DNA from: Takakia lepidozioides
Lineage: Eukaryota; Plantae; Bryophyta
Direction of reading: 5' to 3'
DNA length: 64,000 nt
NCBI GenBank assembly: GCA_030704615.1
Contig: CM060734.1
Coordinates: 16,430,001 to 16,494,000, forward strand
Shown: piece after piece, positions 3,603 through 61,890 of the stretch
Position numbering within the stretch: the stretch's first letter is position 1
How the letters are laid out: the number at the start of each line of letters is the position of its first letter
Translations under genes and position numbers: made by a program
The notes under the pieces: model-generated
The model's database searches: none
What the model was told of the DNA's origin: nothing
What the model saw: only the letters and a program-made list of their open reading frames with translations

Positions 3603-3727
3603 ACCACCCTGTTGGTTGTTACAAAGGTGTCCACCTTCCTACCGGAAGGCAGTAGCCCTTCTGGGTCAAGTGACACCATAAGTTACGCTTGCTTCGGCAA
3701 CGCGTCCACCTTTTTTTTTTTTTTTTT
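3603..3727 (+). repeat. Structured ~110-bp repeat ending in a T-run (copy 1; copy 2 at 61778-61890)
   Basis: Near-identical to 61778-61890. Contains GGTGTC/GACACC and CCTTCC/GGAAGG stems and a TTGC-TTCG-GCAA hairpin, followed by T17. Confidence 0.8.
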
Positions 3728-6677: not shown

Positions 6678-8721
6678 TGAGTCAAAAACAAAATCGATAC
6701 GTGCCAGAAACCCATATCGATATGATTGACCTGGAATCCCACCCTCCCACCCTGTTTTTTCAGAGACCCTGAAATGTAATGGGGTATTCAAATGAGATTG
6801 TAAACATGAAAGGGAATGTTAGATGGTGCCCTGTAAAGGGCTGTTTTGTCTTTCAATGACAATGACCTTAGCGGTCTTGTCCATGTCTTGACATGACATG
6901 TATATCTTCCCTGCCCTAACCCTCTGCATGACGATCGTGCTCAAGGGATGGCTGGAGCTGAGAGATGGTGGCGGGGGGCGCATGGAGCTCGATTCAGGCG
7001 CCCTTGAATGCTACGGAGCTGCACCATTAAGGCATTTAGGTGTTCTGGCAAGATTCAATACCTTCTTCCCCTCTTGGGGTACGCAATGGCGGCAGTACCT
7101 GCAATTTCCCTGTGGCGGTTGTCTCTAATGCTTGGCGGGCGATCTACCTGTGTTGTGGTTGCTTGTTGTGACCTTCATTGATCATTAAGATACAAGCGGC
7201 GATCTTAAGGCCTCAGGGAAGTGTCTGAACTCTTTAAGTTTGGGCGATTCACTTTCTTTGTGCATGCTTTGTACATTTTTGTTGTGCATTTTTGTTTGTT
7301 GGTCTTGAGAGCTATGGCGCAGGCCTCTCTTCCACAAGCCATCAAGGTATTGGCTTGCATATGCTCTGTTTCCTTTCTGCCTCTGCTTTGTATTGCATGT
7401 TGTACAACGATAACAAGCGTGAGACCTGCGATTCACCTGGGGTTCCACATCGTCTCTAACTTAACTGTTTCTGATTGCGTGTGATGGGACCAGGTGAGGG
7501 TCCTCACTTAACATGGATTTTAAAGCTTGAAGTTGATTGGAATCGAGTTGAAGAAGCGACGCCATCTGTATCTTTGGGGGAGAACGATCCTTTCTTCCTC
7601 TTTCCTTTGATCTTGATGGCTCCTATGTTTAACCTAGTATGGTGGACAATCAATCATTAGGGCGACTATCTCTTGTTCCCTATGGCATACTGATGTGACG
7701 ATGGAGCAATGATATGACAAGCTGATGGCTTTAAAGAGATCTGGTAACATGCTACAATGTAGGGCAGACCTGTTTACATGACCAGACAGTGTTCTTGAAT
7801 GTACAAGCATTGGAAACTTAGCCTCTTTTAGAAGCTTGTTACTTTAGGACACTTGATACCATGCCAAACTGATATGGATGGATCTTTTGTGGCCAAATCT
7901 GGTCCTTGGTTATATGCCCTTGAATGTTTACCTATTTTCCAAAATGGTAAGACATTGGTAGATGTGAAGAGAATGATTCAGGCATTGTATTCAAGTTGCT
8001 TTAGGATTAAATAATACCAAAGTAACCTGCAGGCCTGATGGGATGAGCAATTCAGATTCTTTGTGTTTCCTATGGATGATTGCATGGCAAGTAAATCTGA
8101 TTACAGCCTCTTATGGTAATGATTTCCCTACCCCAGACATAGAACTTGGTCTTGGGACATGGAATAAGAGGTGGGAATATTACTCTACCCTGTCATTGAA
8201 ATTACACACCAGCCCCAGATCTAAAACAGATCATGGGGCAAAAAACATGGTGTCAATAAGTGACTTGATGTGCAAAATAGGGCAGCTGATTATACCCTGT
8301 TGTATAAGCTGCCAAATATCAGTCTTGTAACCCTGCTTTGGTGATGTTCTTTATGTAAAGAAATGCTCTTATTTTGTTCTTAAGCCTTCTATGATCATAA
8401 ATGGCTTCTTTAAGACAAACAGACATTTCCAGCCATGAACAGTGATCAATGGATCCTTATTTGGACATGGATACTTACTGCTCAGTCACTTTGGTATGTC
8501 CAATGATACAAAGAACCCAAAACTATACTAGTTTTTGGGCCAACAATAAATTAGGATGGTTGGTTATGCCTTGGTATGTAAGCTGACCAAAAAATACAGA
8601 CTGAATGACATGGCATGTCATGAATGACACTTTTTAGCATGCTGAACAATGGTTTCCTGCTATGAACAGTGGTAATTGAGTCTCTAATTTTTCCCACCCC
8701 CCCCACCCAGAGATTTCATCT

Positions 8722-11586: not shown

Positions 11587-11828
11587 TGGGCATGACAACG
11601 GTGAGGCGGACAAGTGATCCAAGGTCTAACTAGTGGGGCTTCAATGCCATCGATACTCAACTGAAGATCATGGATTGCATGAAGGCGACTAACGATGGGG
11701 CTACGTTTGCACCCGGCCTCTTGATCTATCGACTTCAGGTGTTGGGACTTGTGCGATTGAAGACCAAGCGATGATCTTATTGGGGTGGATACTTGCAAGC
11801 TATCTGGTGTTAGAGGGACCTAATCACC

Positions 11829-12060
11829 AGCTAGGGGGGCGATTGTGGCATGGCTTTCTAGGACTATATGTTAGGAAGTGTGGTTGGACAGCGATGTATG
11901 TTGTGGCACGATGCTTAGGTGCACGACAACTGTCATGGTTTTGTTTGTGATTAGTTAGAAATAGTTATTTCTAACTAATTATGACATTATACATTTATAT
12001 TTGTATTTTGTTGGCATTGGGACTTCAGTTGTTGAATTAGTGAAGGTTTTCTTGGTGGGG
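11829..12060 (+). mobile_element. Polypurine tract (11829-11843) and truncated 3' terminal repeat of the PHD-gypsy copy
   Basis: AGCTAGGGGGGCGAT followed by TGTGG at 11844. Internal GCACGACA-AC-TGTCA junction at 11921-11935. Homologous to the minus-strand end at about 32560-32320. Right boundary approximate. Confidence 0.7.
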
Positions 12061-25062: not shown

Positions 25063-27367
25063 GTTGAAATTGTGTCCGCACAATTTCGTCAGTTCCTGTG
25101 TTTGCTGTATCTCTAGGGGATGTAGGGTGGTGGCATGCCTGTCTGCTGGTTAGGAAGTGCGTCCCAGGATTGTCGTGGTGGCAGCTTCTTGTTTCTGTCA
25201 TCACTGTCTGGTTGCTCCTGTGGTTCGTGAGTGGGGCAACTTTCGTTATCAGGGTGTTTTGTTATTCCGTCCCCACGTATCATGTCGATTTTGGTGGTCA
25301 GGGTTTAGGTTTGCAGCTCCTCCTTGGTCCAGGGTATAATGTTTTTAGTTGCCCTGCTGCCCATTAACCAGTTAACAACTTGCGTCCCTGTTTCTCTGAA
25401 AGGGTGGTCTCTGTCCAAGACCAATGGTGAAAAGTGGTCTTTCGTCTGGCGCCATGCTTCAGCATATAGTGGTCTGTTCATATATGTTGAAGTGCATGCG
25501 ACTCTCTCTGGTGGCTGGAATTTGGGTAATTCCCAGTGAGTATCTTTTTCAAAACTCTCATAGCGCTGCCAGCTTCCCCTCATTGTCACAAACATCCGGT
25601 ACAAGTAACTGCCAATATAAAAACTTGGACAACCCATTACAACGTCTACTGCCGGGGTAGGATTAATCTTCAATTGCCCCACTGCCCACATGTAAGCTTT
25701 CTGTGGTGGCTGTGAACAGTCTACTTTCAACATTTTCCCTTTCCTTCAGCAGTACAGTGTTGCATGAGAGACACTTACTTCCCTAGTCTTTGGCAGTCTT
25801 CAGTTGCCCCTTGAGTATATCTACCTGCTCCTTAAGTGTCTGCACTTGTCCTGTGATAGGTAGTTGCTGGATTTATTGTGGTTTCTTCCTGATGTTTACA
25901 AGGTTATTGGGAGAGTCAGCTTGGTCTTAGCAGGCAGGGTTTCAATCTCTGGGAGGCATGGTCAACTGCAAACAGCAGTGGCAGCAGCACAATTGATAGA
26001 ACAAGGCACTGCTAATCAAGGTAACTTCTTCAACGCATTTCAGCCTGTTTTTCCATGGCTGTCATTGGGATTGCAGCCCTAGCAGCTGATTCTGTGTCTA
26101 AGTAGCACGGACAAGGTAGTCGAATAGAATCTTGCCAATGTGGATAGTGGGAGGGCAGAGGAGGTAGCTGACACTGTTATGGACTTGTGGGCCTGGTGTG
26201 GCGTACCTTACTACGTAGGGGCCCAGGGGTATGTGGCGTACTACATGGGCAACAAAAGAAACGCCGGTCGCAGAGGCACTGGAGTGGTCAGGCCAGACGA
26301 GGGAAGTAGGACAGTAGCAGCGAGATGTGATGAAGAGCAAAGTAGAAAGGCTGAACAAGCGAAGCATAGGCGTGATTCAAGGGTTTCCAAAGCTGCAAGG
26401 GACGTTGAAGTGGTTGTTCATGAACGCGATATGGAGTGTTGTGAAGAGAGGGACGAACGAGCAGTGGGTAATTGCTTGAATAGCATTGTGCATGTCATTG
26501 AAGATGAATTGACTCAAAGAATGGATTAGACTCAAAGAAAATTGTGATGGGGAAGGTTCTCTATCACCCACAGCTTGCACCCTTTATGCCTTCTAACTTA
26601 TTGCTTGATGCAAAAGAAGCTAGAGCAAACCAAATTGCCTTGCATAGTATTAGAGAATGGCAGAGCAAAGTAAAAGGGAGACAGAGAAAATATATTGCTA
26701 GAGCCAAGAGCATTGTTTGTAGTGTGGCAACTTCCAGCCACACTGAGAATGTAAGATTGACTGTGAAGGTCCTTAGCGTAGATTGCAGGCTGCTTTCAAA
26801 AGGTATGAATAGACGAAGGCTTCTTGATGAGGCCGGGCAACCGTTGTGGCAATTGGAGAGTAAGCGAGCTGATGCGTTGACTAAAGAAGTTCAGACACTA
26901 ATAACAGAGTGGTGGACAACAGAAACCACGGTGTCACCAAACAAAAAGGAAGTTACTCGACGTCGCAGGGGGCCAAAAGATTATGAGACACGTGCCACAC
27001 ACTATCTTCAAGAGTCTCAGGTTTCTCCTCTCTACACTTGTTGTTTTTCTGTGTTCAATTGCATGTCCATCTTCTCAGCAACCTATATAGATCCTGAACA
27101 GTTTGCTTTCAACATGTTAGACTGACCATAATTCTCCTTCTTTAAGGATCTTACTTTTTTAGGAGTTTGTACATTGTTAGAGTACTTACTTACTAGGTAG
27201 GACAAGACCTCTGAAGTTTTCAGGATCAGGTATATATGTTGTTACAGTATATATATACTATGGCCTGGTTTGTATAAGTGTTAGTTGCACTCACTAGGGC
27301 TACTACATCATAAAGCCCTTGTTCTGTAGGAGTTAGTGCAGTACTGCAGTATCCTAATGATAGCTAT

Positions 27368-27531
27368 TAGTACCACTAGTAGAGTAAGTAATTGCGCATG
27401 AATCAGTTTAGGGTGTAGAGTAAGTAACTGCTAAAGGCAAGAATCAGTACCACTAGTAGAGTAAGTAATTGCTAAAGGCAGGATTCAGTACCACTAGTAT
27501 AATAAATAATTACTAAAGGCAGGATTCAGTA
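27368..27531. repeat. ~41-bp degenerate tandem repeat, about 4 copies
   Basis: AGTACCACTAGTAGAGTAAGTAATTGCTAAAGGCAGGATTC-like units. Confidence 0.75.
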
Positions 27532-27868
27532 GCAATAATCAATCAGTAACTATATACTACTAAAGCTACTGATTCCTGCATCCATGATATAACTCCTCTA
27601 GTAACTCCTCCAGCCATTTATTCCTACACTCATCTACTGAAGGCAGGACTCATTAGCAACAATAAAGTAATTATGCAAATGTCATAGTAGTTACACCTTA
27701 GGGTAAGAGCAGGAGTTAGTATCAAAGTAGTCATGTGACCCATTAAGATAGGAGTCAGTTGCATATGTACATAATTATAACCTAGCACAATATGCATCAT
27801 GGAGTGATTGACATGTTGTGTGATTGATATTGCAGCTTCACTTTTACACGCGCTTCCAAACAGCACCA

Positions 27869-27934
27869 ATGGCTGAACGAGATCTGGTGTCGTGGAGTGC
27901 GATGCTTGCAGGGTATGCACAGCAGGGGCGTGGG
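27869..27934 (+). pseudogene. Single PPR motif fragment (66 bp)
   Basis: Translates MAERDLVSWSAMLAGYAQQGRG, a typical PLS-class PPR motif, in a different frame from the flanking transposase-like ORF. Confidence 0.75.
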
Positions 27935-28439
27935 ATGCGTGGGTCTGATGGTTGGGCTAAGATCATTTGAGTATCTAAAGCCTTGGTACGTGCATCGTCT
28001 TACTGAAAGGAACACTTGTTGTTGCAAATATCACACAGAGATGCAGGAATTGAAGCAAGGGTGGAACAACATGAGATCGGCGATAAAAGGCATCCATGGT
28101 GACTCGTGTACATGTCATTGTTCTGAGGTATGAAACCCTAACCACAAACACTGATCCCGCAACCCAAACTCCAAACCCCCAAGGCAAACCATAAGCCTAA
28201 AACCCAAGCCCGCACTGATAAACCCCAAACCCCAAAGAATAAACGGAAACCACAAACCCATAACGGTAACCCTAATTCATGAAAGTGTACCTTACAGAAT
28301 AAACCCCAACCAGCGACAATTTAGAAGAGGTGGAGAACCGAAGTGAAAGGAGGCTTAAATTTAGAAAAATAGGTGGAAAAAATTAAAGTGTCATAAAGAA
28401 GCTCAACGGAAATTGTATGTGTTGTTGAGTTTAAATAAG

Positions 28440-29221
28440 TGTATTTTAATTTGGCAGAAGCTTAATTCCAGCCCAGAAGACCAGCCAGATTAAGCTGGCG
28501 TCAACGCCACCTTACTCTGGCACATTCGGGGGGGGGGGGGGGGGGGGGGGCAAAAACGGATTTTTATTTATTTTTTGGTTGCTGCTTTTCTGTTTTTCAA
28601 TATCCTTCTGCTTAGAGGGGTGGAGATTAAGCTGGCATCAACGCCATCTTAATCTAGACCCAGACAGACAGACAGGTAGACAAACAGACAGGGTTCTTGA
28701 GTGGTTTATGTTTTTCTGTTTGTCAATTTATTTGTGCTTAGAAGGGTGGAGATTAAGCTGGCGTCAACGCCATCTTAATCAAGACCCAAATAGACAGGTA
28801 CACAAACAGACAGACAGACAGAGACACAAACAGATGGTAGGACTTCAATGGTTGCTTCTTTTCTGTTTTTCAATTTCCTTGAGCTTAGAGGGGTGGAGAT
28901 TAAGCTGGCGTCAACGCCATCTTAATCCAGACCTGGATAGTTAGCCATTCAGACATACCACTCTACTTTCATCCAGATTTTTATCATATCACATTCATCC
29001 ATCATTTATCCACTCACCAATCTTATTGCCAAGCCTTAGTCACACTCCGGGAATACTAAGCTCTCATTTTCGGCGGTTAAGCCCCGCGGCAATAGGGCTT
29101 CTAGGAGTTGACGGACCGCGGTAATAGGCCCAACCCAAAATTATAATTTCGAGGAATGTGAGCAGAATTTTGCTCACAGTATTTTCTGCTCACGTGAGCT
29201 GCTCACAATCTAGCACGCCCC
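28440..29221. mobile_element. DNA transposon terminal region with palindromic subterminal repeats
   Basis: GATTAAGCTGGCGTCAACGCCATCTTAATC-like motif x4. Ends TGCTCACAATCTAGCACGCCC, identical to the ends at 41995 and, inverted, at 48091. Confidence 0.75.
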
Positions 29222-29622
29222 GTGCTGGCCATTGTGGCTGCTGAGACATTCCTATCCAGGGTTCCTTTGCCTGAGCGTGGGATGCTGCTACCGCATACGG
29301 AGGCAGGTCGTAGTTTTTTATCCGGAGTCTGTAGCGCAACAATTTGTTCCTGCACTTTGAGCCTCTTCTCCCTTGCAACGTCCTCCCTCCCAAAATACGT
29401 TGAACACCGTGGAATCCCGCTGATGGCCTTAGCGAGATGCTTCGTAAAATGCAAGGGCGGTTCGTAACTGCAATAAGGACAAAACATATTAGATCATGGC
29501 AGGCGAGAAGCCTCAGATGGGACACCTATGCTAGCTATGCTAACAATCAATAGACTACTTAGAAGTTCAACTTACTCACTCTAGCAATTGTACGTGGATC
29601 TACAACCCATCCCGGTCGTCGT

Positions 29623-30905
29623 TCAACCAATCGTTGTCGGCAAGTGTGTCAGTGTGATTGTTGGCCCTGGTGCTGCCTGCTGCAATCCTCCAAGCCTCTC
29701 TTGTAGGAGCTCTTCATCCCCTTCCAGCGCGAGCAGATGCCTTCCGCAAACACTTACAGCCACCATGGAGGACCCGCATCCCGCTAGTGTCAGATCGACT
29801 ACTGTTCCCCCTTCTGGTGAACACATCTCCATAAAGGTTTGGATAAACCTCGGGCTTTTCTCGCGAGCCCCACGGAGGAAGGTATCATCTTGCCGTTTGT
29901 GGACTCTATGCTCTCTCACCATGTTCCTCACCACATCTTCAGTGATGGCGTTGTGGTCGGTGTCCAGCTTCCCAGCAATCTCCCGGAAATTGAAATTACC
30001 CTCCAAGCCTTTCAAAAGGCATAATGCATAAAAAAATGACAGTCTGCAAGTTCCAATGACAGTAAGAATCCCATGAGCTCCATGTTACATAATGCAAGAC
30101 CTCTCATAGTTGCTACAGGTTGTGATTCCAGACAGACAATGCAAACATTGGAAGGTGCTCACAAGTACCAATACTCCTTACTACTAAACCCCTCTGAAGT
30201 AGTCGTTACCGACTACAACTCCCAAACAACCCACCCCTATGTTATAGTCGGTACCGACTATGACTCCGTAAGATCCCATTGCCGTGTCATAGTCGGTGCC
30301 GATTATGATTCCCAAGTACCCCAGGCTGCCCTATCCACTAATGCTTATTGACTATGACTGCCGAATACCGCAGCCCCGTCCGATAATCATTTCCTACTAT
30401 GACTCCCCAAGACCACATCCCCCTGTCATAGTTGGTGCCAACTATGACTCCTACGCAGGCCCCCGTCCAATAGTCGGTACCGACTATGTCTCTGCAGAAT
30501 ATGACTACCGACTGCGACTGTATCCGCAGACTATTACATGCATTTGCCAGTACATTCCCAAGAAGCTGCAGTCGTCTGTAACGACTACTACACAATAACC
30601 CGAAATGACTCTAATACAGACTGGACACTGTGGTGCAAAAGACGTGAGAACCAACAGGCACATAAAAAAGAGCCACATTACATAAGTGAGCAGGTTGAAC
30701 TTACCTGTGGCTGCCCCACTTCTCCAGATTGGAGGGGAATTCAATTGATGCAAGTCCATTTTTTCTTGATAACTTTGAAGGGCCCCAATGGGCCCACACA
30801 TCTCCAAATTTCAACCTCTGTTTTAGCATCGCCCTTGCAGAAAATCACAAGGCAACCCTGGTCTTTTAGCAAGGATGATACCAGTGCCAGTGCATGCGGG
30901 ATAGT
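29623..30905 (-). pseudogene. Beta-class N4-cytosine/N6-adenine DNA methyltransferase-like gene, C-terminal exons (~30905-30714 and ~30042-29630)
   Basis: EKSPRFIQTFMEMCSPEGGTVVDLTLAGCGSSMVAVSVCGRHLLALEGD matches the N6_N4_Mtase C-terminus (KP..L...S..G..VLDPFxGSGT..A...GR...G.E). The upstream exon LVSSLLKDQGCLVIF matches the LKxxGxxxI region. The catalytic (D/S)PPY motif was not found. Confidence 0.7.
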
Positions 30906-31116
30906 ATCCTTTGTCTTTGCATTAGTAATAGTCGGATATGATTATAGGTCAGGGCAGGGGTACTTGCCAGTCATTGTCAGTAAGGAAAACCACATAGGGC
31001 AGCTGGTAGTTTGCAGTCATAGTCGGCACCGACCATGACACGGGGTTGGGGTCATAGTCGGTGGTGACTATTGGGCAGGGGTGTGATTTTTTAGAGTAGT
31101 AGTCGGTAACGACTAC
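30198..31116. repeat. Dispersed palindromic repeats ATAGTCGGTACCGACTAT and variants
   Basis: More than 10 copies at 30200-30590 and 30928-31116. Also at 61907-62001, 63165, 63310 and 63469. Confidence 0.85.
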
Positions 31117-31215
31117 TTCACGGGGGTTTAATAGTCAGAAACGCCTGAGTAGTTGTGTGCTATTGCCAATATTGTTCATGTCCATCCGGAATCATACTTC
31201 CATGCACTTTTGCAG

Positions 31216-31821
31216 GTACCTAAATTTTTATTTGCTTGCCAACAAACATATCAAGTGTATGCTGACCATGGTCACACAGTGGGCTAGCTCGCGGGCTGAC
31301 TGCACAATGTACAACGGAAGGCAATTAGCCGAGTATATCAAAATCACTCATTTGCCATGCTACTGGTGGTTGGACTTGCCACCGAATGTCATTCCTGACG
31401 TGGAGGTGGAAGTGTACAATAAGTACACGAAGAACGAGCTGCAGGCACCCATATACATGGAGCCACTGACGGAGAAAGGTGCCGAGGAGGTCGCCGAGGT
31501 TGCTGCAACCCACCTTCAACAAGCAAATACTGCTCTGCAAGCTGCGGTAGCCACCAAAAAACAGAGAAAAATGAAACAAAAACCCAAAAAGACAGCCACC
31601 ACAGAGCAAGACACCCCCCCCCCCTAGGCAGAAGGCGTGCAGGCAACACCGGTTTGGATGTTGTCGATGAAACAGATGGTGCTGACAGGGAGGACAACCC
31701 AGAGGCAGGACATTTTACCCAGGCCCTACAAAATTTCCTGATTGAGCGAAGGAGTCAATCTGCTTGGAACGTATGGGCAAGCACAAGTGAGGGCAGGGTC
31801 ATGCAGCTTGCATCGATCCTA
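31216..31821 (+). pseudogene. Exon of unknown protein, truncated by the gypsy terminus
   Basis: TTTTGCAG acceptor at 31215, then open frame YLNFYLLANKH...; flanked by the same palindromic repeats as the MTase-like gene. Confidence 0.4.
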
Positions 31822-32528
31822 TGTCATGCGCATACATATCGCTACACAACTACATCGTTGCCCAAAACCACACAACACATGTGCACACCACACACTAATA
31901 TACCACTAGTCCACCACTAGTCCAGCCACTAGTCTAACCACTAGGCTACAACTAGTCAGTCACTAGGCTGCCACTATGCTGCCCACTATGGCAGTCACTA
32001 GTCCACACAATAGATAACGAAGAAGAATACAAGCACAAGCTCATGCGAGCTCACAAAGCTGAAGCATAAACTCATGCATATATAACCTCATCACTCAAAT
32101 ACAAGTCAAGCCAAGTGCACCCCACGCCATGGGGAATCCACACTACGGCGCCATAGCTAGGCGCGGTGAGGCTCCACTCGAGAAAGATGAGCCTCCCGCA
32201 CTTGCCGTGAAGACAACCACTCCAGGGCCTAAATCTGCCTTGACCCCTGGATTGACACTTGGGCCAATCCCAAATGTCAATATGTAAAAGCTAGCTATTT
32301 CCTAGCTAGTTTCACACTAGTGGTAAAATAACTTGACAGCTGTCGTGCGCATACATATCGCTACACAACTACATCGCTATCCAAAACCACACAACACTTG
32401 TGCACACCACACACTAGTATACCACTAGTCCACCACTAGTCCAGCCACTAGTCTAACCACTAGGCTACAACTAGTCAGTCACTAGGCTGCCACTATGCTG
32501 CCCACTATGGCAGTCACTAGTCCACACA
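31822..32528 (-). repeat. Split terminal repeats of the DNMT/PHD-gypsy element: Y1 (32528-32341), X2 (32338-32013), Y2 (32009-31822)
   Basis: Y1 and Y2 are 188-bp near-identical direct repeats. X2 matches 61139-61450. PPT AGCTAGGGGGGTGAT immediately precedes Y1 on the minus strand. Confidence 0.9.
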
Positions 32529-32840
32529 ATCACCCCCCTAGCTAGTGCTTAGGTCCCTCTAAGTCCAGGTAGCCACAAGATGTGATAGTGACCATAGCCT
32601 CACTAAGTCCTCCACCATTATCCCTACTACACTCAAACTCGATAGATCAAGAGGCCGGGTGCAAGAGTTACCCCATCGTTAGTCGCCGTCTTGCAACCTG
32701 TGAACTTGAGCTTGGGATCTCATGTATTGACTCCTATGAGCTTGGCCTCCCATGTCTTGTTAGCTGCCTCCAGTCATGTCCACTGCCACTATCCCAAGCA
32801 GTGTGGACACAACCAATCTCCGTCAGGAACCTTCTCAAGA
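32529..32840 (-). mobile_element. End of PHD finger, 3' UTR and PPT of the DNMT/PHD-gypsy (piece C, distal part)
   Basis: Minus strand LEKVPDGDWLCPHCLG* (32840-32789). The UTR is homologous to 11590-11843. Confidence 0.9.
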
Positions 32841-33566
32841 TGTCGCGGCCCTTTGCCTTGAGGGCAGGGGGTCGGGACACATGAGGGGCTGCCCCTCTGG
32901 TGGGGGCAGCGGCAGCGATAGGTATGGGGGGGCTGAAGCACCCTTGAGTGCCCAAGGCACTCAAGGAGGCGGAGGCGCTTACTAGGTGGAGTCCCGCACA
33001 CCGGGTTGCGGTGGGGGTGGCTCCACAAGGGGTGGTGGTAGCTTAGCGGGACTTAGTGGGGGTGGCATAGGACTCACCATGGGGGCGGAGACCTCGTGGT
33101 GGGAGTCGTGGGGAGTCTTGGGACTCATCACGGTCCAGAGGGGCCGTGGTGAGTGGGCCAAGACTCACCGCGACTCATCACCGGGAGTCGAGGGTTTTCG
33201 TGGTGGTTCGCCATAAAATGGCATGGCTGGTTGTGAAACCCCGCGGACAGCTACAGAAGTGTATATAAGGGGAGTAGTGACCCCGAGAACGGTGCAAGCC
33301 CGTTGGTGACCAAAAACTAGTGAGTAAGCGAGCGAGCCGGAAAGCGACCAAAGAGTGGGGAGCTGTTCCGGACTGCCATCTACCAAAGGGAATTCTCCTA
33401 GGCCAAATAGGTGGAGGGTTTAGTGGGAATCGAAGGGGGACCGTTATGTCCCGGTGAGCAGCCGAAGCTCCAAGTTGGCCCGGCGGCCAGGTTGGGAGTC
33501 AGGCGCGCGCATCAAAGCGAGTAACTATGACTTGAAGGGGAGCTTACCGAAGTGAGGTGCGCGACA
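32841..33566 (+). repeat. 5' LTR of chromovirus
   Basis: About 98% identical to 39082-39810 by manual comparison. Confidence 0.95.
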
Positions 33567-33568
33567 CT

Positions 33569-33580
33569 TGGTATCAGAGC
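33569..33580 (+). promoter_or_regulatory. Primer binding site, tRNA-iMet
   Basis: TGGTATCAGAGC, 2 nt after the LTR end. Confidence 0.93.
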
Positions 33581-33621
33581 TTAGAGTTCAGTACGCGATC
33601 GTCCTTGGGATTGGCCTCATC

Positions 33622-36600
33622 ATGGGGTCAGGCAAGCCAAAGCGAAAGCGGAACGGCCCAAAAGATGATGATCCTGGTGAGCCCGATGGGGGCGACGTGT
33701 CACCGAAGCGGCCGTTTGAGGAAGCGACGCAGGTTTTTGAAAGCGAGGCCGCTCAAGAGCGGGAGGAATCTGAGGAGTCGGAGCCCGAGGAATCCGTGAG
33801 AGCTCCGACCGACCAACAGATGCCTCCCATGCCGGCAGCCTTTTGGGAAGGGTTGTTGGCGCAGTTTGGCGGGACGTTGAAAGACGTGTTGAAGGCGGCT
33901 AATGCCACTTCCACTAAGGCAAAGTTTAAGTGAAGCCTAAGGAACCCGGCACCTTCGAGGGCGTCCGAAATCGGAAGGCACTCAACACCTGGCTCTTGGA
34001 GCTAGAGCAGTACTTCCAGGCGGCCAAGTTGAGTGACGAGGATCGGGTGGAAGTGGCTCCCACCTATTTGAGGGGCTATGCTCAACAATGGTGGCAGAAA
34101 CGCCTTCACGACCGAGGCCAAGCCCGGAAACCTTGAACTGGAGTGGGTTCAAGGAATTGATGAAGAGACAGTTTGTGCCCCTCAACGCGTCCTGGCTTGC
34201 CCGGGACAAGATGAGGAATTTGAAGCAAACAGATGACATTCGGGGGTATGTCCAGGCTTTCAATGTGCTGTTGCTCGAAGTCGCGGACATGGCAGAACCA
34301 GAAATGGTCTTCAACTTTGTGGCGGGACTGGCCCCATGGGCCAGGCGGAAGTTGGAGGAGAAGCCACCCAAGACTTTGAACGAGGCAATTGAGAGGGCTG
34401 AATGTTTCTCGGATGTCCCTAGGGGTGAGAGACAAGGCCGTACGGAGCTGAACCACAAGAAGACCCGGCGGGAAGGTGACTCCTTCCGACCGGAAAAGAA
34501 GTGGGATAGGCCACGCGGCGACAATGGCACGTGGAAATCGAAGGGAGGGCCTTCACACGTCAAGGCGGCACCCGGTGCTTCGAAAGGAAAAGCGGGTGGA
34601 GCGGCTTATGGCGGACAGAAGGCACCTTTGATGGAGTGTGTTTCAATTGCGGGGAGCCCGGGCACATGGCCAAGAAGTGCACAAAACCTCGACAATTGAA
34701 CATGACTCGGGCACCACGGAGCTGTCGGAAGATACCATCAGTCGCTTGGTGGAAGCGGTGGTCGCCAGGACTTGCAAGGTAGGCAACTATTCTTGTGAGT
34801 TGTATCAGGAAACTGGCGCCCTGCGTAAAGGGAGTCAGTTATTGTTCGTGGATGGGATAATATCCGGAACTAACGTGTCGTTGTTGGTGGACACAGGAGC
34901 GTCGCACTCCTTCATGACGCCGGTGGCGGCGCGAAAGTTGGGACTCCCGACAAGTGACGTGGGGGCCTCTATTGAGGTGCGCTCTGCCAAAGGAGAACCT
35001 CAGTTGGCGACAAGGTTGGCGTTTGATGTTCCTCTTCAACTGGGGAGTTGGGAGGGACGTGAGAACTTCACCATCTGCGAGATCGATGGAGTGGATCTCA
35101 TTTTGGGGATGACCTTTTTGAGCAAATCCGGAGCGGTCATAGATGGCCGCAAGAGAGTAGTCACGCTGCCATGTGGGAATGGTGGCGAGGTTTACGAGTG
35201 TCGAAACGCCCAAATCCGTGGGAGGGCGAATAAACCTTCTGTCAGCAAAGGAGTGGGCCGTGGAGGAGGCACACGAGCCCCAATTTTTGCTTTACATTAG
35301 AGAAGTGAAAGGAGAAGGCGATGGGGAGCCGAGCCCAGATTGGATCAAGGGGATTTTGGAGAAATACCAGGATGTGATGCCGGAGGATTTACCAAGCGGC
35401 TTGCCACCGCGAAGAGGAGTTGACCACAAGATTGAGGTGATACCGGGATCGGAACCGCCTGCCAAGGCGCCCTACCGGTTGAGCCACAGAGAGTTGGTCG
35501 AGCTGAAGACTCAGCTCAAGGATCTAATGTCAAAGGGGTACATCCGGCCGAGTAAGTCACCTTACGGAGCCCCGGTGCTATTTGCAGACAAGAAGGATGG
35601 GACGCTGCGGATGTGTGTCGATTACAGGGCTCTGAATAAGGTGACTATCAAAAACCGGTACCCTTTGCCAAGGATCGACGACCTCTTCGATCGGTTGGCA
35701 GGAGCAAGTATTTCAGCCGGATCGACTTGCGCTCCGGCTATCACCAAATTCGGGTGGCGGAAGGAGATGAGGAGAAGACCGCGTGCAGGACAAGGTATGG
35801 TTCATATGAGTTCTTGGTGATGCCTTTTGGGCTCACCAATGCACCAGCGACATTTAGCACGCTGATGAACAGCCTTTTCCAGGAGTGGTTGGATGACTTT
35901 GTGATCGTGTACATCGACGACATCTTGGTGTACTCGAAAACAAAGGAGGAGCACCTGGAGCACCTGAAAAGGGTGTTCCAAAAATTGCGGGAAGGGAAGC
36001 TGTATGCCAAAGCTTCAAAGTGCGAATTCGGGGTCACAAAAGTGGAGTTCTTGGGCATGTGATTACACAGGATGGGATCAAAATGGATGACAGAAAGGTG
36101 AGGGCGATCTTGGACTGGGAGCTTCTGACTTCGGTCTCGGGAGTGCGATCCTTCCTAGGACTCGCCTCCTATTACCGGAAGTATGTGAGAAATTTCGCCA
36201 AGATTGCGGGGCCGCTGTCAGACCTTCTGTGTAAATCTAAAGTCTGGGCATGGAACACCTTTTGTGGCCAAGCTTTTGCTGAATTGAAGCAGCGGATGGC
36301 GGAAGCTCCAGTCTTGAAAATCCCGGAGTTCGATCGTCCGTTCGAGATACACACAGATGCGTCGGACTTCGCGATTGGGGGTGTACTGATGCAAGATGGA
36401 CGCCCAGTGGCTTACAAAAGTAAGAAACTGAATGAAGTGGAGCGACGGTGGCCGACGCACGAGAAAAGAGATGAAGGCGGTGGTGCACTGTCTTGAGCTT
36501 TGGCGCCACTATGTTGGTTCCAACCCAGTGAAGGTGTTCACGGACAATGTCACGGTGAAGTATTTTGCCACGCAGCCCAAGTTGTCCCCAAAACAACTTA

Positions 36601-38177
36601 GGTGGCAAGATACTTTGGCGGTGTTCGACGTGGATATCCAGTACAAACCGGGACGAGACAACGTGGTGGCCGATGCTTTAAGTAGAAAGCAGCAGCTCTT
36701 GTTGGTGTACAAGAGCGAGACGACGCTCCAAAGGAAGATCCGGAAGGCTTGTCGGAAGGATGAGCTGGCGAAGTCCGTGATGCAGGACTTGAGGATGGGG
36801 GTTAAATCGCAGTTCCACTTGCAAAATGGACTGCTCCGGTATAAGCAAAAGCGTCTCTACGTACCGAATGGAGGGATCAGAGATAGCCTCTTGAGAGAAT
36901 GCCATGATAGCCCGCTTGTGGGCCACGGCGGAGCCAAGCGCACTGCGGCACTCTTGAAGAAAGAGTATTTCTGGCCCAAACTGAGGGAGGAGGCAGAGGA
37001 GTATGTCAAGACATGCACCACATGCCAACAAAACCGGAGCGAGTACAAAAAGCAAGCGGGGCTGTTACAACCTTTGCCGATTCCAGAGGGGACTTGGGAG
37101 AGCGTCTCGATGGATTTCATGACTGCTATACCGCTGTCAAAAGGATTCGATGCAATCATGGTGGTGGTGGATAGGTTCAGTAAAATGGGCCATTTCATCC
37201 CCACCAAGGAGACGGCAACGGCGCAGGAGACAGGGCGACTTTACTTCGCCCACGTCTTAAAGCATCATGGAGTCCCGAAGGATATTGTCTCGGACCGCGA
37301 TCCAAAGTTTACGAGTAAATTTTGGAGGGCACTTTGGAAGAAGATGGGGACGAGGCTGAAGATGAGCACCGCCTTCCGACCTACGACCGACGGCCAAACA
37401 GAAAGAGTGAATTCCGTAGTGAAGCAGTTCTTGCGGAATTACGTGTCGGCAGACCAAACAGACTGGGTGGAACACTTAGACGCGGCAGAGTTCTGTTATA
37501 ATAACACAGAACACTCCGCAACGGGAGTTTCCCCTTTCGTATTGGTCTATGGAAAAGCACCTTTGGTGCCGACAAGTTGGGCCGCCCAGGACGTTGAGGA
37601 ACCGGCAGTAGCGGTGGTACTGGAAGAACGCGAGCGTTTGTTGAAGCTCGCAAAGTACAACATTGCCAAAGCTAGGAAACGGTATGAAAGGCAGGCGAAT
37701 CGAAAGCGGAGGGAAGTGAAGTTTGAGGCAGGCACAGAGGTCTGGATGAACATCAAGAATTTCCGACTACCTCCGGAAGTGAGTCCAAAGTTCGTACCTC
37801 CGTATGCGGGACCCTTTTGCATTCAGAAGGTTATGAATGAGGATGTGTATGAATTGGAGCTGCCGGCAAACAGCAAGGTGCACCCAGTATTCCATGTCTC
37901 CCTTTTGAAGCCTTACTTCAAGGATGAAGCGCGTCCGAATCGGCATCAAGTGTTGCGTCCGCCACCTATGCTGTTGGATCATGAAAATGAACCTGAGTAC
38001 GAGGTGGAGGCAATACTTAAGTCGAGGAGGTTCAAGAACCGAGAAACGGAGTATCTCGTCAAATGGAAGGGCTATCATCATGTGGAGGCATCTTGGGTGC
38101 GTGCCTCAGAAATGGGAAACGCATCCAAGGCGGTCGCAGCTTTCGAAGGGCGACCTCAAAAGCGGAAGAAGCGTTGA
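33622..38177 (+). pseudogene. Chromovirus gag-pol polyprotein, broken by several frameshifts
   Basis: CCHC knuckle CFNCGEPGHMAKKC, protease [22 protein letters not shown], RNaseH HTDASD, integrase SMDF/SDRD/TERVN, chromodomain EYEVEAILK..YLVKWKGY...SW. Start codon approximate. Confidence 0.93.
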
Positions 38178-39081
38178 TGGGGACATCAACCTTGGAGCAT
38201 GGGGGAGGAAATGCATGCTTAGCCCGGCTTAGCTAGCTTAGGGATCCGATTGCAAAAACTTGTATTGTACAAAACGTGCTATAAATGAAATGGATTCCAA
38301 ATGTTGTGCGTCCTATTTTGTTTGGAATGGTGATGCATGGTATGGTTGGCTAGTGTGTAGAATGCATGCTAGCTTATAAGAGTGGGAGAGGTAAATTGGG
38401 TTAATCGTATGTTTGCGTAGTGCCGAAATCGGGTGACTCCTATCCGAGGGGCAAGGAAACTTGCGCCTTCTTTGGGAGTTCACATGCTAGTGCGTACCTG
38501 GCGCGTGTGCGTACTATAACTGCGCTACCGAGGGGGTTGCCTTGTAGTGCGGGCTAACACGGAAGCTACGTGCTTCCGTTCACGTACTATAATCATGTAG
38601 CCTCGGGATGAAGTCGTAGTGCGGCTTCGGCGTGTTCCCGTACCTCAGGCCAGCATTCCAAGGCGGACCCAATTGTAGTGATTGGGGCGCACGGTTGGTT
38701 CAAGGTTATCTTCCTAGTCAAAGAGGGTTCCAGGGAACCCTTGCTCAAGGTGATGCCAAAAGCGGCATCATGAGCGATCGCAAGCAATGTTGTTGCAGTA
38801 AGGCGATTCGATCCTCGGGGAGGATCGTTCCTTGGCCTTGAAGTAGGCCAAGAATAGTGCACTGGGAAGAGCTGGAGAGGCTCCACCCTTGGCCGGGACT
38901 TGGAAGAAGTCGGCCGAACTAGCTAGTGGAGAGTAGAGTCAAGTGTGGGGTTTGGTTCTTTGCCATGGGACGCCATGGTACGGAAACAAACTCCTTGATG
39001 TGGGACGCCACAACTTGGATGTTCGTTTCTACAAAATGGACAAGTCGATGAGGACATCGACTCCCTGTTGGTAGGGGTGTG

Positions 39082-39810
39082 TGTCGCGGCCCTTTGCCTT
39101 GAGGGCAGGGGGTCGGGACACATGAGGGGCTGCCCCTCTGGTGGGGGCAGCGGCAGCGATAGGTATGGGGGGGCTGAAGCACCCTTGAGTGCCCAAGGCA
39201 CTCAAGGAGGCGGAGGCGCTCACTAGGTGGAGTCCCGCACACCGGGTTGCGGTGGGGGTGGCTCCACAAGAGGTGGTGGTAGCTTAGCGGGACTTAGTGG
39301 GGGTGGCATAGGACTCACCATGGGGGTGGAGACCTCGTGGTGGGAGTCGTGGGGAGTCTTGGGACTCATCACGGTCCAGAGGGCCGTGGTGAGTGGGCCA
39401 AGACTCACCGCGACTCATCACCGGGAGTCGAGGGTTTTCGTGGTGGTTCGCCATAAAATGGCATGGCTGGTTGTGAAACCCCCGCGGACAGCTACAGAAG
39501 TATATATAAGGGGAGTAGTGGCCCCGAGAACGGTGCAAGCCCGTTGGTGACCAAAAACTAGTGAGTAAGCGAGCGAGCCGGAAAGCGACCAAAGAGTGGG
39601 GAGCTGTTCCGGACTGCCATCTACCAAAGGGAATTCTCCTAGGCCCAAATAGGTGGAGGGTTTAGTGGGAATCGAAGGGGGGGCCGTTATGTCCCGGTGA
39701 GCAGCCGAAGCTCCAAGTTGGCCCGGGCGGCCAGGTTGGGAGTCAGGCGCGCGCATCGGAGCGAGTAACTATGACTTGAAGGGGAGCTTACCGAAGTGAG
39801 GTGCGCGACA
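39082..39810 (+). repeat. 3' LTR of chromovirus
   Basis: Preceded by PPT GGTAGGGGTGTG and followed by TSD CAAGA. Confidence 0.95.
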
Positions 39811-40031: not shown

Positions 40032-41419
40032 CATCGTCCTCATGAAACTGCATTGGAGCAACGTGAAAATCTACACTTGTACATTGCGAGACCATTGTCA
40101 ACCGTATCGTTTAAAGCACAGCCTCATCGGACGTTTTCTTCTTAAGGCCAAGCATCCTTGCTTGCCTCTGTTTTTGAATAGCGATCGGACGTTGAGGTGA
40201 GGAACATGCGGACTGTTGCCTGCAGTCATTTAGTCAGCCTCTAGATGTTCGAACGGACGACTGGAATCGCACGCCTTCAACTGTTGCTCCTTGTAGGTAC
40301 CCTAGTCGTATATACTCCTGAGCGCTTTGGCTTCATGGACGTCGCAGACTCTTCCATTTGCGGGCCATACTAATAGCTGTGTCGATGTTTCGCCATTTCT
40401 GATACAAATGGTCATTGTTCTTCACTATCTGTGTGCAATTCGGCTCTCATGGCTCAAAAACACTCAAAAAACAATTCGCGCATTTTTTAATGCACCTACA
40501 TATATGGCGACCAATGGGGAACACTCGTCCCGAGGGTGAAAAAACCCTGAATCACTGGTTTGACAACTCTTTAAATAGGTACACACATTACTAAAACATG
40601 ATTGGCTTTACCATTGACCTAGACCTTTTATTTGGCTCAAACTGGAAGCTAGCAAAAACTATAACTCTGAACCTGCATACTTTCTACTCATGGGGGGTTC
40701 TTCTCTCTGGTCTTGCAGTTTGTCTTGTTATGACAATATCCTGGTGATCCCTTCGAATTCACTCTTCTCTTTTGTGCTTTCTCATTCATCAAGAAGATAA
40801 CTATGACCGAGTTTTGTTCAAGAATTAATGAGCTTCACCGCGGTGTGCTTCGCCCTGGTGGCCATGTGTTCGATTTTAAACATGCTCCCGTCTTCCCCTG
40901 TCCGTGTGGTACATTCTCCGAGTTTGACTTCCAAACTATCCTTCCACTTGACGGCCACTTTTCTGACGTTAACCCGCGTCCACCTGTCACTGACTCTATG
41001 GACTGTGCAACCCGCGTAGGCTGTGTTGGGCTGTGACAGGCTGTGTAATGATGTGATGGGCTGTGATGACTGTGTGATGCTGTGATGGGCTGTGATGATT
41101 GTGTGAACACCTGTGTTCTACGCTCAAGCCATACACATTCGGCTTAACGATAAGTACTTCATGCTCCGTTGGTGTTATTGGTGTAGGTTGTGATGGCATC
41201 TGTGTTACCCTGACACCAACAACTCTGATCATATGACATAAGGTCCTAGCTATTGCTAGAACGAAAAATTTTGGCGTCATTATAGGAGTCAATATGCCCC
41301 TCGCCTGATAATATAAAAAATTTGAAAACCCATTCCTCTTCGGAGAGAGTTCGAGTCCCAGATAGTTTTTTTTCAAAACCGCCATTCTCCCCCACCGGAC
41401 TGGGTGTGAATTCCCAAGA

Positions 41420-41995
41420 TTGAGTAGGTGGCATCAACGCCACGTTAATCTGGCACATTCGTCTCCTCTCATCTCCCCCTCATGTGGTCCGTGACAGAGG
41501 TGGTTTTGTGCAGAACAGGGCTAATATCTTTATAGACAATTCTGCATCAGTTTTGGGCTCAAAATCAGATAGCAATGGAAGTGCTTTTTCGGAATGACTC
41601 ATTTGTTTTTAAGACAGACATTTATGAAGCACCAGTTTCCCTGCCTTGCATGTTTGAAGATGTGTTTTCGAGCTTCCTTTAGCGGTCCCCGGTCTGAATT
41701 CGTCGTTTTCATTCATCCACTCTCTTTCTCATCCATCTTTTCTCATCGCACATTCATCCATCGTTCATCCACTCCTTTCATCCAACTTCTTTTCAAAACA
41801 CACTCAAACATCAATCAACCACTCCACAATGTTGTTGCTAACCCGCAGGCTCACTCTTTAAAAAAAATGCTCTCTTTTCGACGCGTGAAGCCCACAGTAA
41901 TAGGGCTTCCAGCAGGTACAGGTCCGCGGTAATAGGGCGAAAACTGAGAGCAAAATCCTGCTCACAATTTTTTCTGCTCACAATCTAGCACGCCC
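41420..41995. mobile_element. DNA transposon terminal region (same family as 28440-29221)
   Basis: Shares the GGTGGCATCAACGCCAC palindrome, CCGCGGTAATAGG and the terminal CAATCTAGCACGCCC. Confidence 0.75.
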
Positions 41996-42841
41996 GAGTT
42001 CTCAAAACCTGACTTCAAAGTCAACCACCTCTTCAGTAGGTGCTTGGCGAATTCTAGCCAAAGCCATTAAGACACTTGTAAATTGATGCATAGCGCGGAA
42101 TCGATTCATGAACGCATCGCGAATTTGGTCCCAAGCAATGAAAGATCCGTTGGGCTGTTGTCAATACCAGGTCAACGCCTTGCCCTTTAAAGTGGTGGGA
42201 AATCAAATAAGCCAATAAGCATTATCCACTGCCTGATTTGAACAACATATCTGAATGAAGTTCTGAATGTGGCCTCCAGGGTTCTTTTGGGATTCTCCAA
42301 AAAAATATGGTAAACTGGAAGGAATCTACAAGGGTCTCAATCCAATAGGCACCACAATAGGCACCTCAACGACTGGACGCATAGGCAGTTGGGATGACAC
42401 TATTGTGGCCATCACTGAAGACGGACTAGAGATATTAGCACTACTAGATGGTGCCTCTTCAAATGACCGGACCATGCAGGTTCTCTAGTAGTTCGGTCTT
42501 CTCTGTCCAATGAGCTTCGTATACATAACCATCCAATTTCTATCACGTCAATTTCCATGATGCAATGAGCGTTTAGTCTTCTCGCACCCTATAACAACAA
42601 AAAATTGCTTGAAAGCATTAACAACAACCTAGACAACCATCTAGGTCTATCCTTGAAAAGCAAAATAATCTTATTTGATAGGGCAAGACCCTATTTATTG
42701 ATATGCACGTTAATACAAAGAAAAACTAGGTTCAGGGCGTACCTTTTCAAACCTCAGCAATCCATGTTGGTGCGAAAAACTCAACAACAAACCAACCGTT
42801 AGTAGCAACTTACCAAACTCCCGGCAGACGCACCACTAATA
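41996..42841 (-). mobile_element. Truncated gypsy 5' internal region: PBS-like site and retrotransposon gag fragment
   Basis: Minus strand FPTTLKGKALTWY*QQPNGSFIAWDQIRDAFMNRF (Retrotrans_gag-like). TGGTGCGTCTGCCGGGAGT (42835-42817) resembles a tRNA-Asp PBS. Confidence 0.65.
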
Positions 42842-43721
42842 TGACGAGCCTCGCCGCGCGCGCAATTGCGAAGGGGAAAAATGCGACGTCGATCCGGGGC
42901 TTGGAGTTCGGCGACGAGGTGGGTTGGGCTCAAGAACCGCCCACCCGTGAGATGTGTCGCTAAGCTTGGCCGAGGGTCAGCGGTCGACGGAGGGAACTCC
43001 TCCCGCTATCCTAACTACCAGCCAGCACAAGGTCCAACTCCTATGCTTGCGAGGCAAAATTCGTTTGTGTGACCTACGGAATCTACTCCTAATTAATTGC
43101 CTTCCAAGACTTCTTTATTAGCGTTAATACAGCTTCACCCCGGAGCTATCAGTGCCCCTGGCAGGTCCTCTTCGCCTAGAGTGACAGTGGCCAAGAGGCC
43201 CATGGAGTTGTTTTTTGTTTTCCTTGTCTTGAAGTACTAAGAAGGGAAGGGGCTAACCCTTGAACACTAACCATGCAGTGGGAGGTTCTAATGGGGATGG
43301 GTGTTCCTTTTCCTTGGCCACTAGGCATTCTTCACGTGTGAAGCTAACCAAAAAAAACAAGAAAAGCTAGCCAACTAACCCTTGGATAGATGCTTGTTAG
43401 TCGGTGGGAACCCTTCATAGCATTTTTATTTTTCTTTGTTTTCTTTTGTAACAAGTGAATGAGGCCGTGTGCCATTCAAGCTTGCATTATTCTCCAAACA
43501 TTACCTTGGTAGTTGAGTACTAACCCCCCCCCCCCTTTCGGAGAAGGAATGGGGGAAGGCTAACCCTTGGTTATGTTTATTTTTTGCTTTATAAGGTTGC
43601 TGGGAATTTATTTTTGCACTAAAAATTAATTTCCAGGCTTATTTTCCTAGTCCTAGAAGGCCTCCAAGCATATAAGAGCTTGGAAGACCTTACTAACATG
43701 GGTAGTTAGGTGAGCTAACCC

Positions 43722-44519
43722 TTGGGGTTAAGCCATGATCATTCAACCTCACCATGTACACCATCAAGGACAGTTAAAGCAAGTGCAGGGATGGCTACAG
43801 AGGGGCAGTATGGTGCGCCACATTTTATGGCGGGGCAGACCTCAATGCAGCAGACGTCACAGATCCCTTTGGACGGGAGGGAAGGTTTACACGACACATT
43901 ATTGCAGGGTTCAAGCACCAGTCCTGGAGGGACACCGGATCAATTGACGGGCGGAGATCGCCAGAATGCATTACGGAGGGATAGGAGAGTGGTAAAAAAA
44001 GAACTCAAACAGCAGGCTGCTACCAATGTGGCTGCAGGGAAGCGCAAATTTGTCATTGATTGCAATAGTGATGGTGCCCCACAAGGCCCTGCACGCAGCC
44101 AATGGATGACTGCATTACAAGGCCAGTCCATGCGACTGCTGGACTGGAGTGTAAAAGGTGAAGATCAGCCAGTAGAGGCGCTTAAGAAGATCATGGACGT
44201 ATTAGCGCAGGACTGGGAATATGGAACTCCTGGGATTGAATTGAAGGAACTTACAAAGATCATTTGTAGACAGTTGAAATACCAACGACGCAAACTGTTT
44301 AAAAACCATTACTGTGCGGGGTCGCCCAAACCTGAATATGTTCCAGACAAAACATGGGCACAGTTGCTATCAACGTGGGCATCAGAAGGCTTCAAAAAAC
44401 AATCTACCAATGGTACAAAGGCACGGGGGCGTGTGAAAAAGTTGTTCCGATGTGGAGTGAGTGGTATGAGTGGAGTGGCAACAAGACTGGTAAAATCTAT
44501 GCCTCTACAGCCTATATGA
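43722..44519 (+). CDS. CACTA/En-Spm TnpA-like (Transposase_24-like) ORF fragment
   Basis: KPEYVPDKTWAQLLSTWASEGFKKQSTNGTKARGRVKKLFRCG matches the P..V....W..L...W.S..F...S.....R pattern. Confidence 0.6.
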   Translation: MGLSHDHSTSPCTPSRTVKASAGMATEGQYGAPHFMAGQTSMQQTSQIPLDGREGLHDTLLQGSSTSPGGTPDQLTGGDRQNALRRDRRVVKKELKQQAATNVAAGKRKFVIDCNSDGAPQGPARSQWMTALQGQSMRLLDWSVKGEDQPVEALKKIMDVLAQDWEYGTPGIELKELTKIICRQLKYQRRKLFKNHYCAGSPKPEYVPDKTWAQLLSTWASEGFKKQSTNGTKARGRVKKLFRCGVSGMSGVATRLVKSMPLQPI

Positions 44520-48089: not shown

Positions 48090-48560
48090 GGGGCGTGCTA
48101 GATTGTGAGCAGCTCAAGGCTTTTATTTTGTTTTTTTTGTTTTTTGTTTTTGGGGTGAATTGTCATGTTCCAAGAGGGGCTGGGAATTAAGGTGTCGTTG
48201 ACGACACCTTAATCTGGCACATTCGATTTTCGATTTCGATTTCCCGAATGTGCCAAATTAAGGTGTCGTCAACGACACCTTGATTCCCAGCCCCTCTTGG
48301 AACATGACAATTCACCTGCCACCTTAATCTGGTTGGTCTTCTGGGCTGGAATTAAGCTCTAACAGGGGCTAGGAATTAAGGTGGCGTTGACGCCACCGTA
48401 ATGCCGAGTCTGTTTCCCTCTACGAACATGGCTCCTCGCCAAGGCTTTTATTTCATTTTTATTTTTATTTTTGGTTTTTGGGGTGAATTGTCATGTTCCT
48501 TGTGAGGGCTGCGAATGACGCCACCTTAATGCCGAGTCTGTTTCAATGGTAGAACATGGC
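48090..48560. mobile_element. DNA transposon terminus with a 72-bp-arm hairpin
   Basis: Starts GGGGCGTGCTAGATTGTGAGCAG. Inverted arms at 48154-48225 and 48245-48316. Confidence 0.75.
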
Positions 48561-61777: not shown

Positions 61778-61890
61778 ACCACCTTGTTGGTTGTTACAAA
61801 GGTGTCCACCTTCCTACCGGAAGGCAGTAGCCCTTCTCGGTCAAGTGACACCATAAGTTATGCTTGCTTCGGCAACGCGTCCACCTTTTT
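61778..61890 (+). repeat. Structured ~110-bp repeat (copy 2)
   Basis: Matches 3603-3715 with about 3 substitutions. Confidence 0.8.

Follow-up and report, generated by a model that had tools for sequence, protein, structure and literature searches.

On balance, we read the gene fragments in the 64,000-nucleotide stretch of Takakia lepidozioides DNA analysed here (the window) as a dead copy of a multi-copy plant gene that is likely transposon cargo and whose product likely binds DNA without methylating it. The copy itself is a rearranged pseudogene. The gene comprises about seven exons: those at 29.6–30.9 kb form its 3' part, and the 5' exons lie at 62–64 kb. Several lines of comparison support homology of the gene's C-terminal domain to the bacterial beta-class DNA amino-methyltransferases (MTases), and the domain is apparently of bacterial origin.

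Gene structure of the window copy

The window is TE-dense eukaryotic DNA with Ty3/Gypsy and LINE domains. Exon A (63677–64000, minus strand) is a tentative 5' exon of low-complexity, basic/acidic sequence, with an in-frame TAG (63759–63757) and a GT donor at 63676, and extends past the window edge; its membership is tentative because it has no protein match. Intron A–B below it (63035–63676, minus strand) bears three copies of an interrupted palindrome (63165, 63310, and 63469). Exon B (62430–63034, minus strand) encodes an N-terminal domain of unknown fold and is split by a frameshift near 62546–62549, the two halves matching residues 19–108 of the Ceratodon protein P0015 (0/500 shuffles for each). 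A tblastn search with a Ceratodon protein also matched 62703–62430 (E = 2e-5), where the introns bear the same palindromes. Exon C (62110–62355, minus strand; acceptor position approximate) carries a frameshift near 62255 and ends in ...RRLVY(R) with a phase-2 donor, collinear with ...YRLLYR of P0015, a match that is weak on its own (z 1–3).

The 5' half of intron C–D (61891–62109, minus strand), with two palindromes, is followed by a short, very high-copy and apparently SINE-like insertion (61760–61890) that has a 97% copy at 3603–3715 and is frequent also in probable RNA runs, and then by a nested LTR pile of ~29 kb (32012–61450, minus strand), the outer element of which is Gypsy-like. An extra 190-bp LTR piece (31822–32011, minus strand; 97% to 32341–32530) lies at a rearrangement breakpoint. 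Exon D (31216–31821; YLNFYLL...), which is multi-copy and has a frameshift in a C-run near 31615–31625, and the 3' half of intron C–D (30924–31215), with three palindromes, are inverted and lie on the plus strand, opposite to the remaining exons. The phase-2 acceptor of exon D (YLNFYL) fits the phase-2 donor of exon C, the moss equivalent being YRLLYR-YLRNEL. Alone, neither exon C nor exon D is significant against P0015 (z 1.0 and 0.0); the joined B–C–D series aligns collinearly with P0015 residues 19–248, the exon D part corresponding to residues 187–248.

The exon E remnant (30705–30923, minus strand) encodes the beta-MTase strands after motif IV, matches three Ceratodon proteins (z 5.5–5.9), and is cut at its 5' end at junction 30923/4. 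It holds the peptide LLKDQGCLVIF (minus strand, ~30870) that a preliminary description, made from the letters of the region at 29623–30905, had assigned to an upstream exon; the GT donor given there near 30713 is present but lies at 30704, the exon ending at 30705. The intron proposed between the two exons was borne out (donor 30704, acceptor 30043, both phase 0). In the contig of another copy, both exon ends around intron E–F (30044–30704, minus strand) are kept, with 596 other letters between them. Exon F (29576–30043, minus strand) encodes a linker, RGAREKSP, motif I, and motifs II–III, and the earlier quoted peptides EKSP...SPEGGTVVDLTLAGCGSS...GRHLLALEGD were found on the minus strand in the open reading frame 30084–29623. 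Intron F–G (29468–29575, minus strand; GTAAGT...TTGCAG) separates it from exon G (29222–29467, minus strand), a tail or 3' untranslated region truncated at 29222, where an element has inserted.

The order of P0015 is preserved along this series, with the exon B halves, exon E, and exon F matching in turn (z 8.9, 8.0, 5.5, and 25). Intron positions and phases agree with those of the moss relatives, including an in-frame intron after PHQK in P0033, and the alternative annotation after LLYR in P0003 versus P0015 also agrees with the placement of the window intron. Judged from sequence, the separated exons B–F belong to one gene.

The palindrome ATAGTCGGTACCGACTAT occurs exactly at 30244 and 30470. 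At ≤4 mismatches, there are 13 copies in the 64 kb, whereas 30 block shuffles gave 0.23 on average and never more than 1, and all 13 fall within introns of the MTase-like gene: five in intron E–F, which had rightly been described as packed with palindromes, three at 31019–31116, and five at 61907–63486. Their consensus, RTAGTCGG-N2-CCGACTAY, is interrupted, the seven outer pairs holding in 11–13 of the 13 copies and the central pair in 4/13. That these intronic repeats are binding sites for an element protein is speculation.

Lesions and rearrangement

The exon E remnant contains a stop codon (TGA, 30743–30741). Exon F carries an extra T in the run 30036–30030 and a second frameshift near 29666, and its motif I is lengthened by a 3-nt insertion. 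The preliminary description had overlooked all of these, together with the inversion and the existence of 5' exons at a distance of 30 kb. The frameshifts at 30036, near 29666, and near 62546–62549, the last of these being an extra base in exon B, are missing from some other copies, and most other coverage lacks the motif I insertion (880/1019 depth in run X2). The 3' end of the gene is cut at 29222, the base at which contigs of other copies depart from the window sequence in runs X1, X2, and X5; a search of the window for what follows this base in another copy gave no match (best, 10 mismatches in 30).

The intron part before exon D aligns over ~290 nt with intron E–F, each read in the direction of its exon, and the window has inverted repeats here because the 3' half of intron C–D resembles intron E–F. 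The inversion junction, 30923/4, is bridged without mismatches by a 912-nt contig in X1 and X2, runs of one sample that is possibly the assembly's own source. The simplest reading is an inversion accompanied by loss of the sequence from exon D to mid-exon E, which would have held motif IV; a second copy placed head to head would be a less simple account. In the inferred order of events, retrotransposons would have entered intron C–D before exon D was flipped and the exon bearing motif IV disappeared. The lack of motif IV, already noticed in the preliminary description, was confirmed for the window copy by a six-frame search with an HMM built from four Ceratodon relatives, which matched nothing for that region.

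Copies in Takakia and relatives in Ceratodon

The family is multi-copy. In X2, contigs identical to the window have a depth of ~50–90, most exon bins sum to ~450–2900 (parts of exons C, D, and F are lower, at 210–370), and palindrome-intron bins sum to ~55–320, read depth not being equal to copy number. At several single exon sites, 7–11 distinct contigs differ, representing diverged copies in the same organism. The family is probably expressed. A 345-nt contig from X6, a probable RNA run, joins 29576 to 29467, the exact removal of the GT...AG intron F–G; it comes from another copy, since 48 of its letters differ from the window. No RNA datasets were listed for the exact window stretch.

A phmmer search with exon F returned 13 matches at E ≤ 0.001, 11 of which are true relatives; we discarded P0001 (an LRR protein) and P0010 (a Cys-rich repeat protein) as chance matches caused by repeats. 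The only true relatives bearing a species name are proteins of Ceratodon purpureus (KAG0605740.1, KAG0624017.1, KAG0632178.1, KAG0614198.1, and KAG0561977.1), and a Ceratodon entry in UniRef (A0A8T0GTT4) is automatically named "DNA methylase N-4/N-6 domain-containing protein." A search with the P0003 domain found three proteins, all from Ceratodon, and a profile search found four, with the best 7990 candidates scored. A word-index protein search with exon F gave no relatives among 623 candidates, and two metagenome scans found no loci of the family. An Atlas search with exon B pointed to gag-like clusters (0.87), for which both the shared counts and the recognition were low; we treat this as a lead only.

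The Ceratodon proteins come from at least four loci, tagged to chromosomes 1, 3, 6, and 9 (1G310400, 3G218200, 6G158200, and 9G084500). The 3G and 9G proteins are identical across 758 aligned residues, and protein clusters of 12 and 36 near-identical members were also found. Like the window copy, the Ceratodon proteins have the N-terminal domain and the MTase-like domain in the same order, with matching intron positions; they differ in their ~39% identity in the best block, in reading REKDP where the window has REKSP, in falling in a different subgroup, and in being annotated as intact where the window copy is broken. In a tree, all proteins with known motif IV fall in one subgroup and the window copy outside it (UFBoot 92, from only 58 columns). 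Among Ceratodon copies, the MTase domain is ~90% identical, compared with 79%–84% for whole proteins, a conservation that at the sequence level shows selection, not its target.

Homology of the C-terminal domain

Homology to beta-class amino-MTases, as first proposed from a few peptides, is supported by family-profile searches of the PDB, profile–profile comparison, Atlas, and Foldseek. In the PDB, the family profile found M1.HpyAVI (E = 8.4e-6), and beta-class DNA MTases made up 9 of the top 11 rows; a shorter profile (A4) reached only E = 0.03, and single-sequence searches of the PDB gave no MTase match. Against plasmid MTases, hhalign gave a probability of 97% (E = 1.8e-11), with the bacterial alignment still including a 25-aa stub from a phage match (L007). 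This stub was removed for the tree and for a test of the N-terminal half, and a long sequence of the DPPY type (L001) was left out of the alignment. The N-terminal half alone placed DMIFADAPEG on DMILCDLPYG with a score of 22, above all 60 column shuffles (maximum 18.8), a modest match at E = 0.011. In Atlas, the third match (0.94) has PF01555 in 39% of its members, and a tblastn search of plasmids with the relative P0032 gave, among 25 of 37 records listed, 21 named "site-specific DNA-methyltransferase" (best E = 7e-4). Foldseek ranked CcrM and M1.HpyAVI at the top (E ~1e-5) for a domain model with a pLDDT of 45.7 and TM values of 0.2–0.3; the full-length fold model had a pLDDT of 34.6. The PF01555 profile, proposed earlier as a check, matched the window exon weakly (E = 0.25, 11.7 bits, profile positions 164–216; gathering cut-off 26.7 bits). 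No family member reaches this cut-off, the best relative scoring 18.3 bits (E = 0.0024).

Catalytic motifs and predicted activity

At motif IV, all five Ceratodon proteins read DAPEG, and four members of a second cluster read DAPED, DAPED, DAPED, and DVPED. The consensus (D/S/N)-x-P-(Y/F/W) thus occurs in 0/9 relatives read, and motif IV is deleted in the window copy. No relative read has S at this position, as the SPPY/TSPPY motif of eukaryotic N4C MTases would have. The proposal that the region encodes an N4C/N6A enzyme is not supported: every full-length relative read has D-A-P-E or D-V-P-E, and the window copy is a pseudogene. The preliminary description had proposed reading the SPPY or DPPY motif from intact paralogues; the intact moss relatives read D-A-P-E there.

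Five plasmid MTases, chosen by their C-terminal match, carry D-L/I-P-Y-G at motif IV. Methylation by the moss relatives appears doubtful, because the intact moss sequences have D-A-P-E where the nearest bacterial enzymes have D-L/I-P-Y. In N4CMT, the motif IV tyrosine has been modelled as stacking on the target base (PMC10406627), and changing SPPY to APPA abolishes activity (PMC8885841). Replacement by glutamate of the tyrosine that would stack on the flipped base is thus predicted to have cost the family its catalysis. The fold has probably been retained without methyl transfer, since motif IV has Glu and the first motif I glycine is lost (absent in 6/6 of the moss subgroup), yet the domain is ~90% conserved. 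The protein would then be a non-methylating accessory factor that binds DNA, most likely for a mobile element, rather than a writer of 4mC or 6mA.

The window's own branch may still be active, because the motif I glycine is often kept there and the copy lies outside the moss subgroup. We regard it as unlikely that the Takakia branch is an active, transposon-borne amino-MTase writing 4mC or 6mA on the DNA of its own element, for example at the intronic palindromes, with catalysis lost or altered in the moss subgroup alone. Of the remaining near relatives, 4/8 retain the first glycine of motif I, as do other Takakia copies with the 3-nt insertion set aside; the window copy reads DLTLAGCG with this copy-specific insertion, which the other copies lack. 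Diverged copies are also present in two probable RNA runs, spliced in one of them, and N4C enzymes have been co-opted in rotifers and Marchantia. Against such activity, all nine sequences read at motif IV, all from the moss subgroup, have E for Y, and the other four of the eight relatives outside that subgroup also lack the motif I glycine. A broader conjecture, which we consider improbable, is that an undescribed family of DNA transposons in seed-free land plants carries an intron-bearing, bacterially derived amino-MTase, of which one still active branch marks the element's palindromes with 4mC or 6mA, the moss branch being a pseudo-enzyme or using a new D-x-P-E chemistry.

Mobility and neighbouring elements

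Whatever its activity, the family is likely the cargo of a DNA transposon, as suggested by copy number and dispersal: multiple dispersed copies are seen in the Takakia contigs, the Ceratodon loci, and the protein clusters. The earlier proposal of a transposon-borne family thus stands as to its many copies but not as to a visible carrier, the adjoining TIR and LTR elements being insertions into the gene. No transposase in the window could be linked to the gene, which extends past the edge at 64000 and is truncated at 29222, and neither a pair of terminal repeats nor a target-site duplication is tied to it there. A host gene family that was acquired horizontally long ago, grew by duplication or passive capture, and is represented here by a copy that decayed in a TE-rich region would agree with the many introns at positions shared with moss and with flanking elements that are secondary insertions rather than a carrier. 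We think this rather improbable, since identical proteins under the tags of two Ceratodon chromosomes fit mobile DNA better, and the size of the near-identical clusters, the abundance of pseudogene lesions, and the introns filled with palindromes likewise favour mobile DNA. Transposon cargo thus remains the preferred reading.

The element that cuts the gene is a high-copy, DNA-transposon-like insertion (26128–29221, plus strand) with transposase-like exons and the terminus ...CTAGCACGCCCC at 29221. This TIR-ended element is an insertion, not a carrier, because other copies leave the window sequence at 29222; we rejected it as the gene's carrier, since they diverge exactly at its end. Its exon peptides (WWTTET...SPNKKEVT and FEYLKPWYV...TCCCKYH) matched no transposase family in profile searches; by their motifs, they appear Sola2-like. 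Sola2 transposons have paired GRG...CYC ends; the only partner end for the terminus at 29221 is a loose candidate at 23402, without a matching duplication. The element is interrupted by a short PPR-like fragment (~27870–27960) and has palindromic repeats in its intron (27354–27673) and near its end (28487–28928). Its terminus recurs at 41975–41996 and 48090–48111, within two further ends belonging to this terminal-repeat family (41400–41996 and 48090–48560) that have similar subterminal palindromes. These ends face each other, with an open reading frame (43719–44519; 266 aa, no Pfam match) and LINE/integrase fragments between them, and could delimit a single element.

The preliminary description had counted the gene as a second, independent methyltransferase-carrying element in the window. 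The other methyltransferase, of C5 type and independent origin, does lie in a Gypsy-like element, but this element sits within the gene's own intron. Its open reading frame (57005–53997, minus strand) has a gag-like region, a zinc knuckle, a protease-like motif, and a C5 methyltransferase (WPCQG; PF00145, E = 1.2e-9), and its LTR parts (32013–32324 and 61139–61450) are 98% alike. The one-ORF layout is similar to that of KnitGypsy-Dnmt3 of Klebsormidium (PMC5890265), whereas the window element is apparently in a land plant. Most of the reverse transcriptase (RT) is missing from this element (32012–61450); a related copy (82%) at 8680–11850 has RT, integrase, and a PHD finger. A chromodomain Ty3 element (32841–39810), with 98% identical LTRs, a CAAGA target-site duplication, and interrupted frames, is inserted in its integrase end, and a tandem array of 10-nt-based units (CACAGCCC-like) lies inside it at 58480–59570, with a related inverted patch at 41019–41106. 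Elsewhere, a ~960-bp unit occurs at 4086–6695 in three copies, direct and inverted (97%–99%), with ~120-bp subrepeats.

Comparison with known bacterial and eukaryotic systems

The bacterial and plasmid D-L/I-P-Y-G MTases (PF01555; WP_194358222.1 and WP_069723432.1), the solved relatives of which include M1.HpyAVI, CcrM, M.RsrI, and TTHA0409, have the same motif order as the plant family, with IV before I. Both groups have K-P/S before a helix, a D-x-x-x-(G)-x-G motif I region, and a hydrophobic-G-x-E motif II. The plant members differ in having Glu for the motif IV Tyr in all sequences read, RG[AS]REK[SD]P in place of HPTQKP, a large N-terminal extension, and spliceosomal introns, and are ~20% identical to the bacterial group. 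It is very improbable that the domain has only a generic SAM-binding fold with RNA, protein, or a small molecule as substrate: PF01555 matches fall below the cut-off and VIA-align of the low-confidence domain model gave generic folds only (best Z 7.1, rmsd 2.8, 74 aligned; no beta-class MTase among the 50 rows for the pLDDT 45.7 model), but the motif order in intact relatives is the beta permutation (motif IV equivalent at P0003 437–446, before motif I at 616), and the best sequence, profile, Atlas, and Foldseek matches are beta-class DNA MTases.

Among eukaryotes, N4CMT of Adineta vaga, which has introns (PMC8885841), and MpDN4MT1 of Marchantia are likewise genes of beta-class amino-MTase type. 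N4CMT was among the PDB matches of the family profile (E = 0.1) and the Foldseek matches of the pLDDT 45.7 model (2e-3); MpDN4MT1 was not among the protein-search matches and is likened to the plant family by description only. Both are low-copy host genes with SPPY/TSPPY and demonstrated 4mC activity (10.1101/2021.02.12.428880, PMC8885841). N4CMT has a chromodomain, whereas the plant family has many copies, no SPPY, and no chromodomain match. A precedent for an inactive amino-MTase domain carried by a transposon is offered by the N6A-MTase domains of DIRS1 elements, judged inactive from catalytic substitutions (Iyer et al., PMC4738411). The DIRS1 domain, however, is of the PCIF1-like group 2 and part of a retroelement polyprotein, whereas the plant domain is of the permuted beta class and encoded by a gene with several exons. 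Section 8 of that work names no land-plant clade of the plant-family type, and literature searches at the level of listings found no description of the family.

The window thus holds a real homologue of beta-class amino-MTases, belonging to a little-described multi-copy plant family. The literature surveyed contains two eukaryotic 4mC writers of bacterial type, both host genes, and a multi-copy, probably mobile beta-class MTase-like family in mosses and Takakia would widen that picture and offer a source for any 4mC or 6mA signals in such genomes. The change from Tyr to Glu at motif IV in a domain that is ~90% conserved poses the question of whether its members are pseudo-enzymes or have an altered chemistry, which the window locus, as a pseudogene, cannot answer. 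If an active transposon-borne branch does exist, amino-methylation would have been gained in eukaryotes once more, apart from the cases in rotifers and Marchantia and this time by the genomic parasite.
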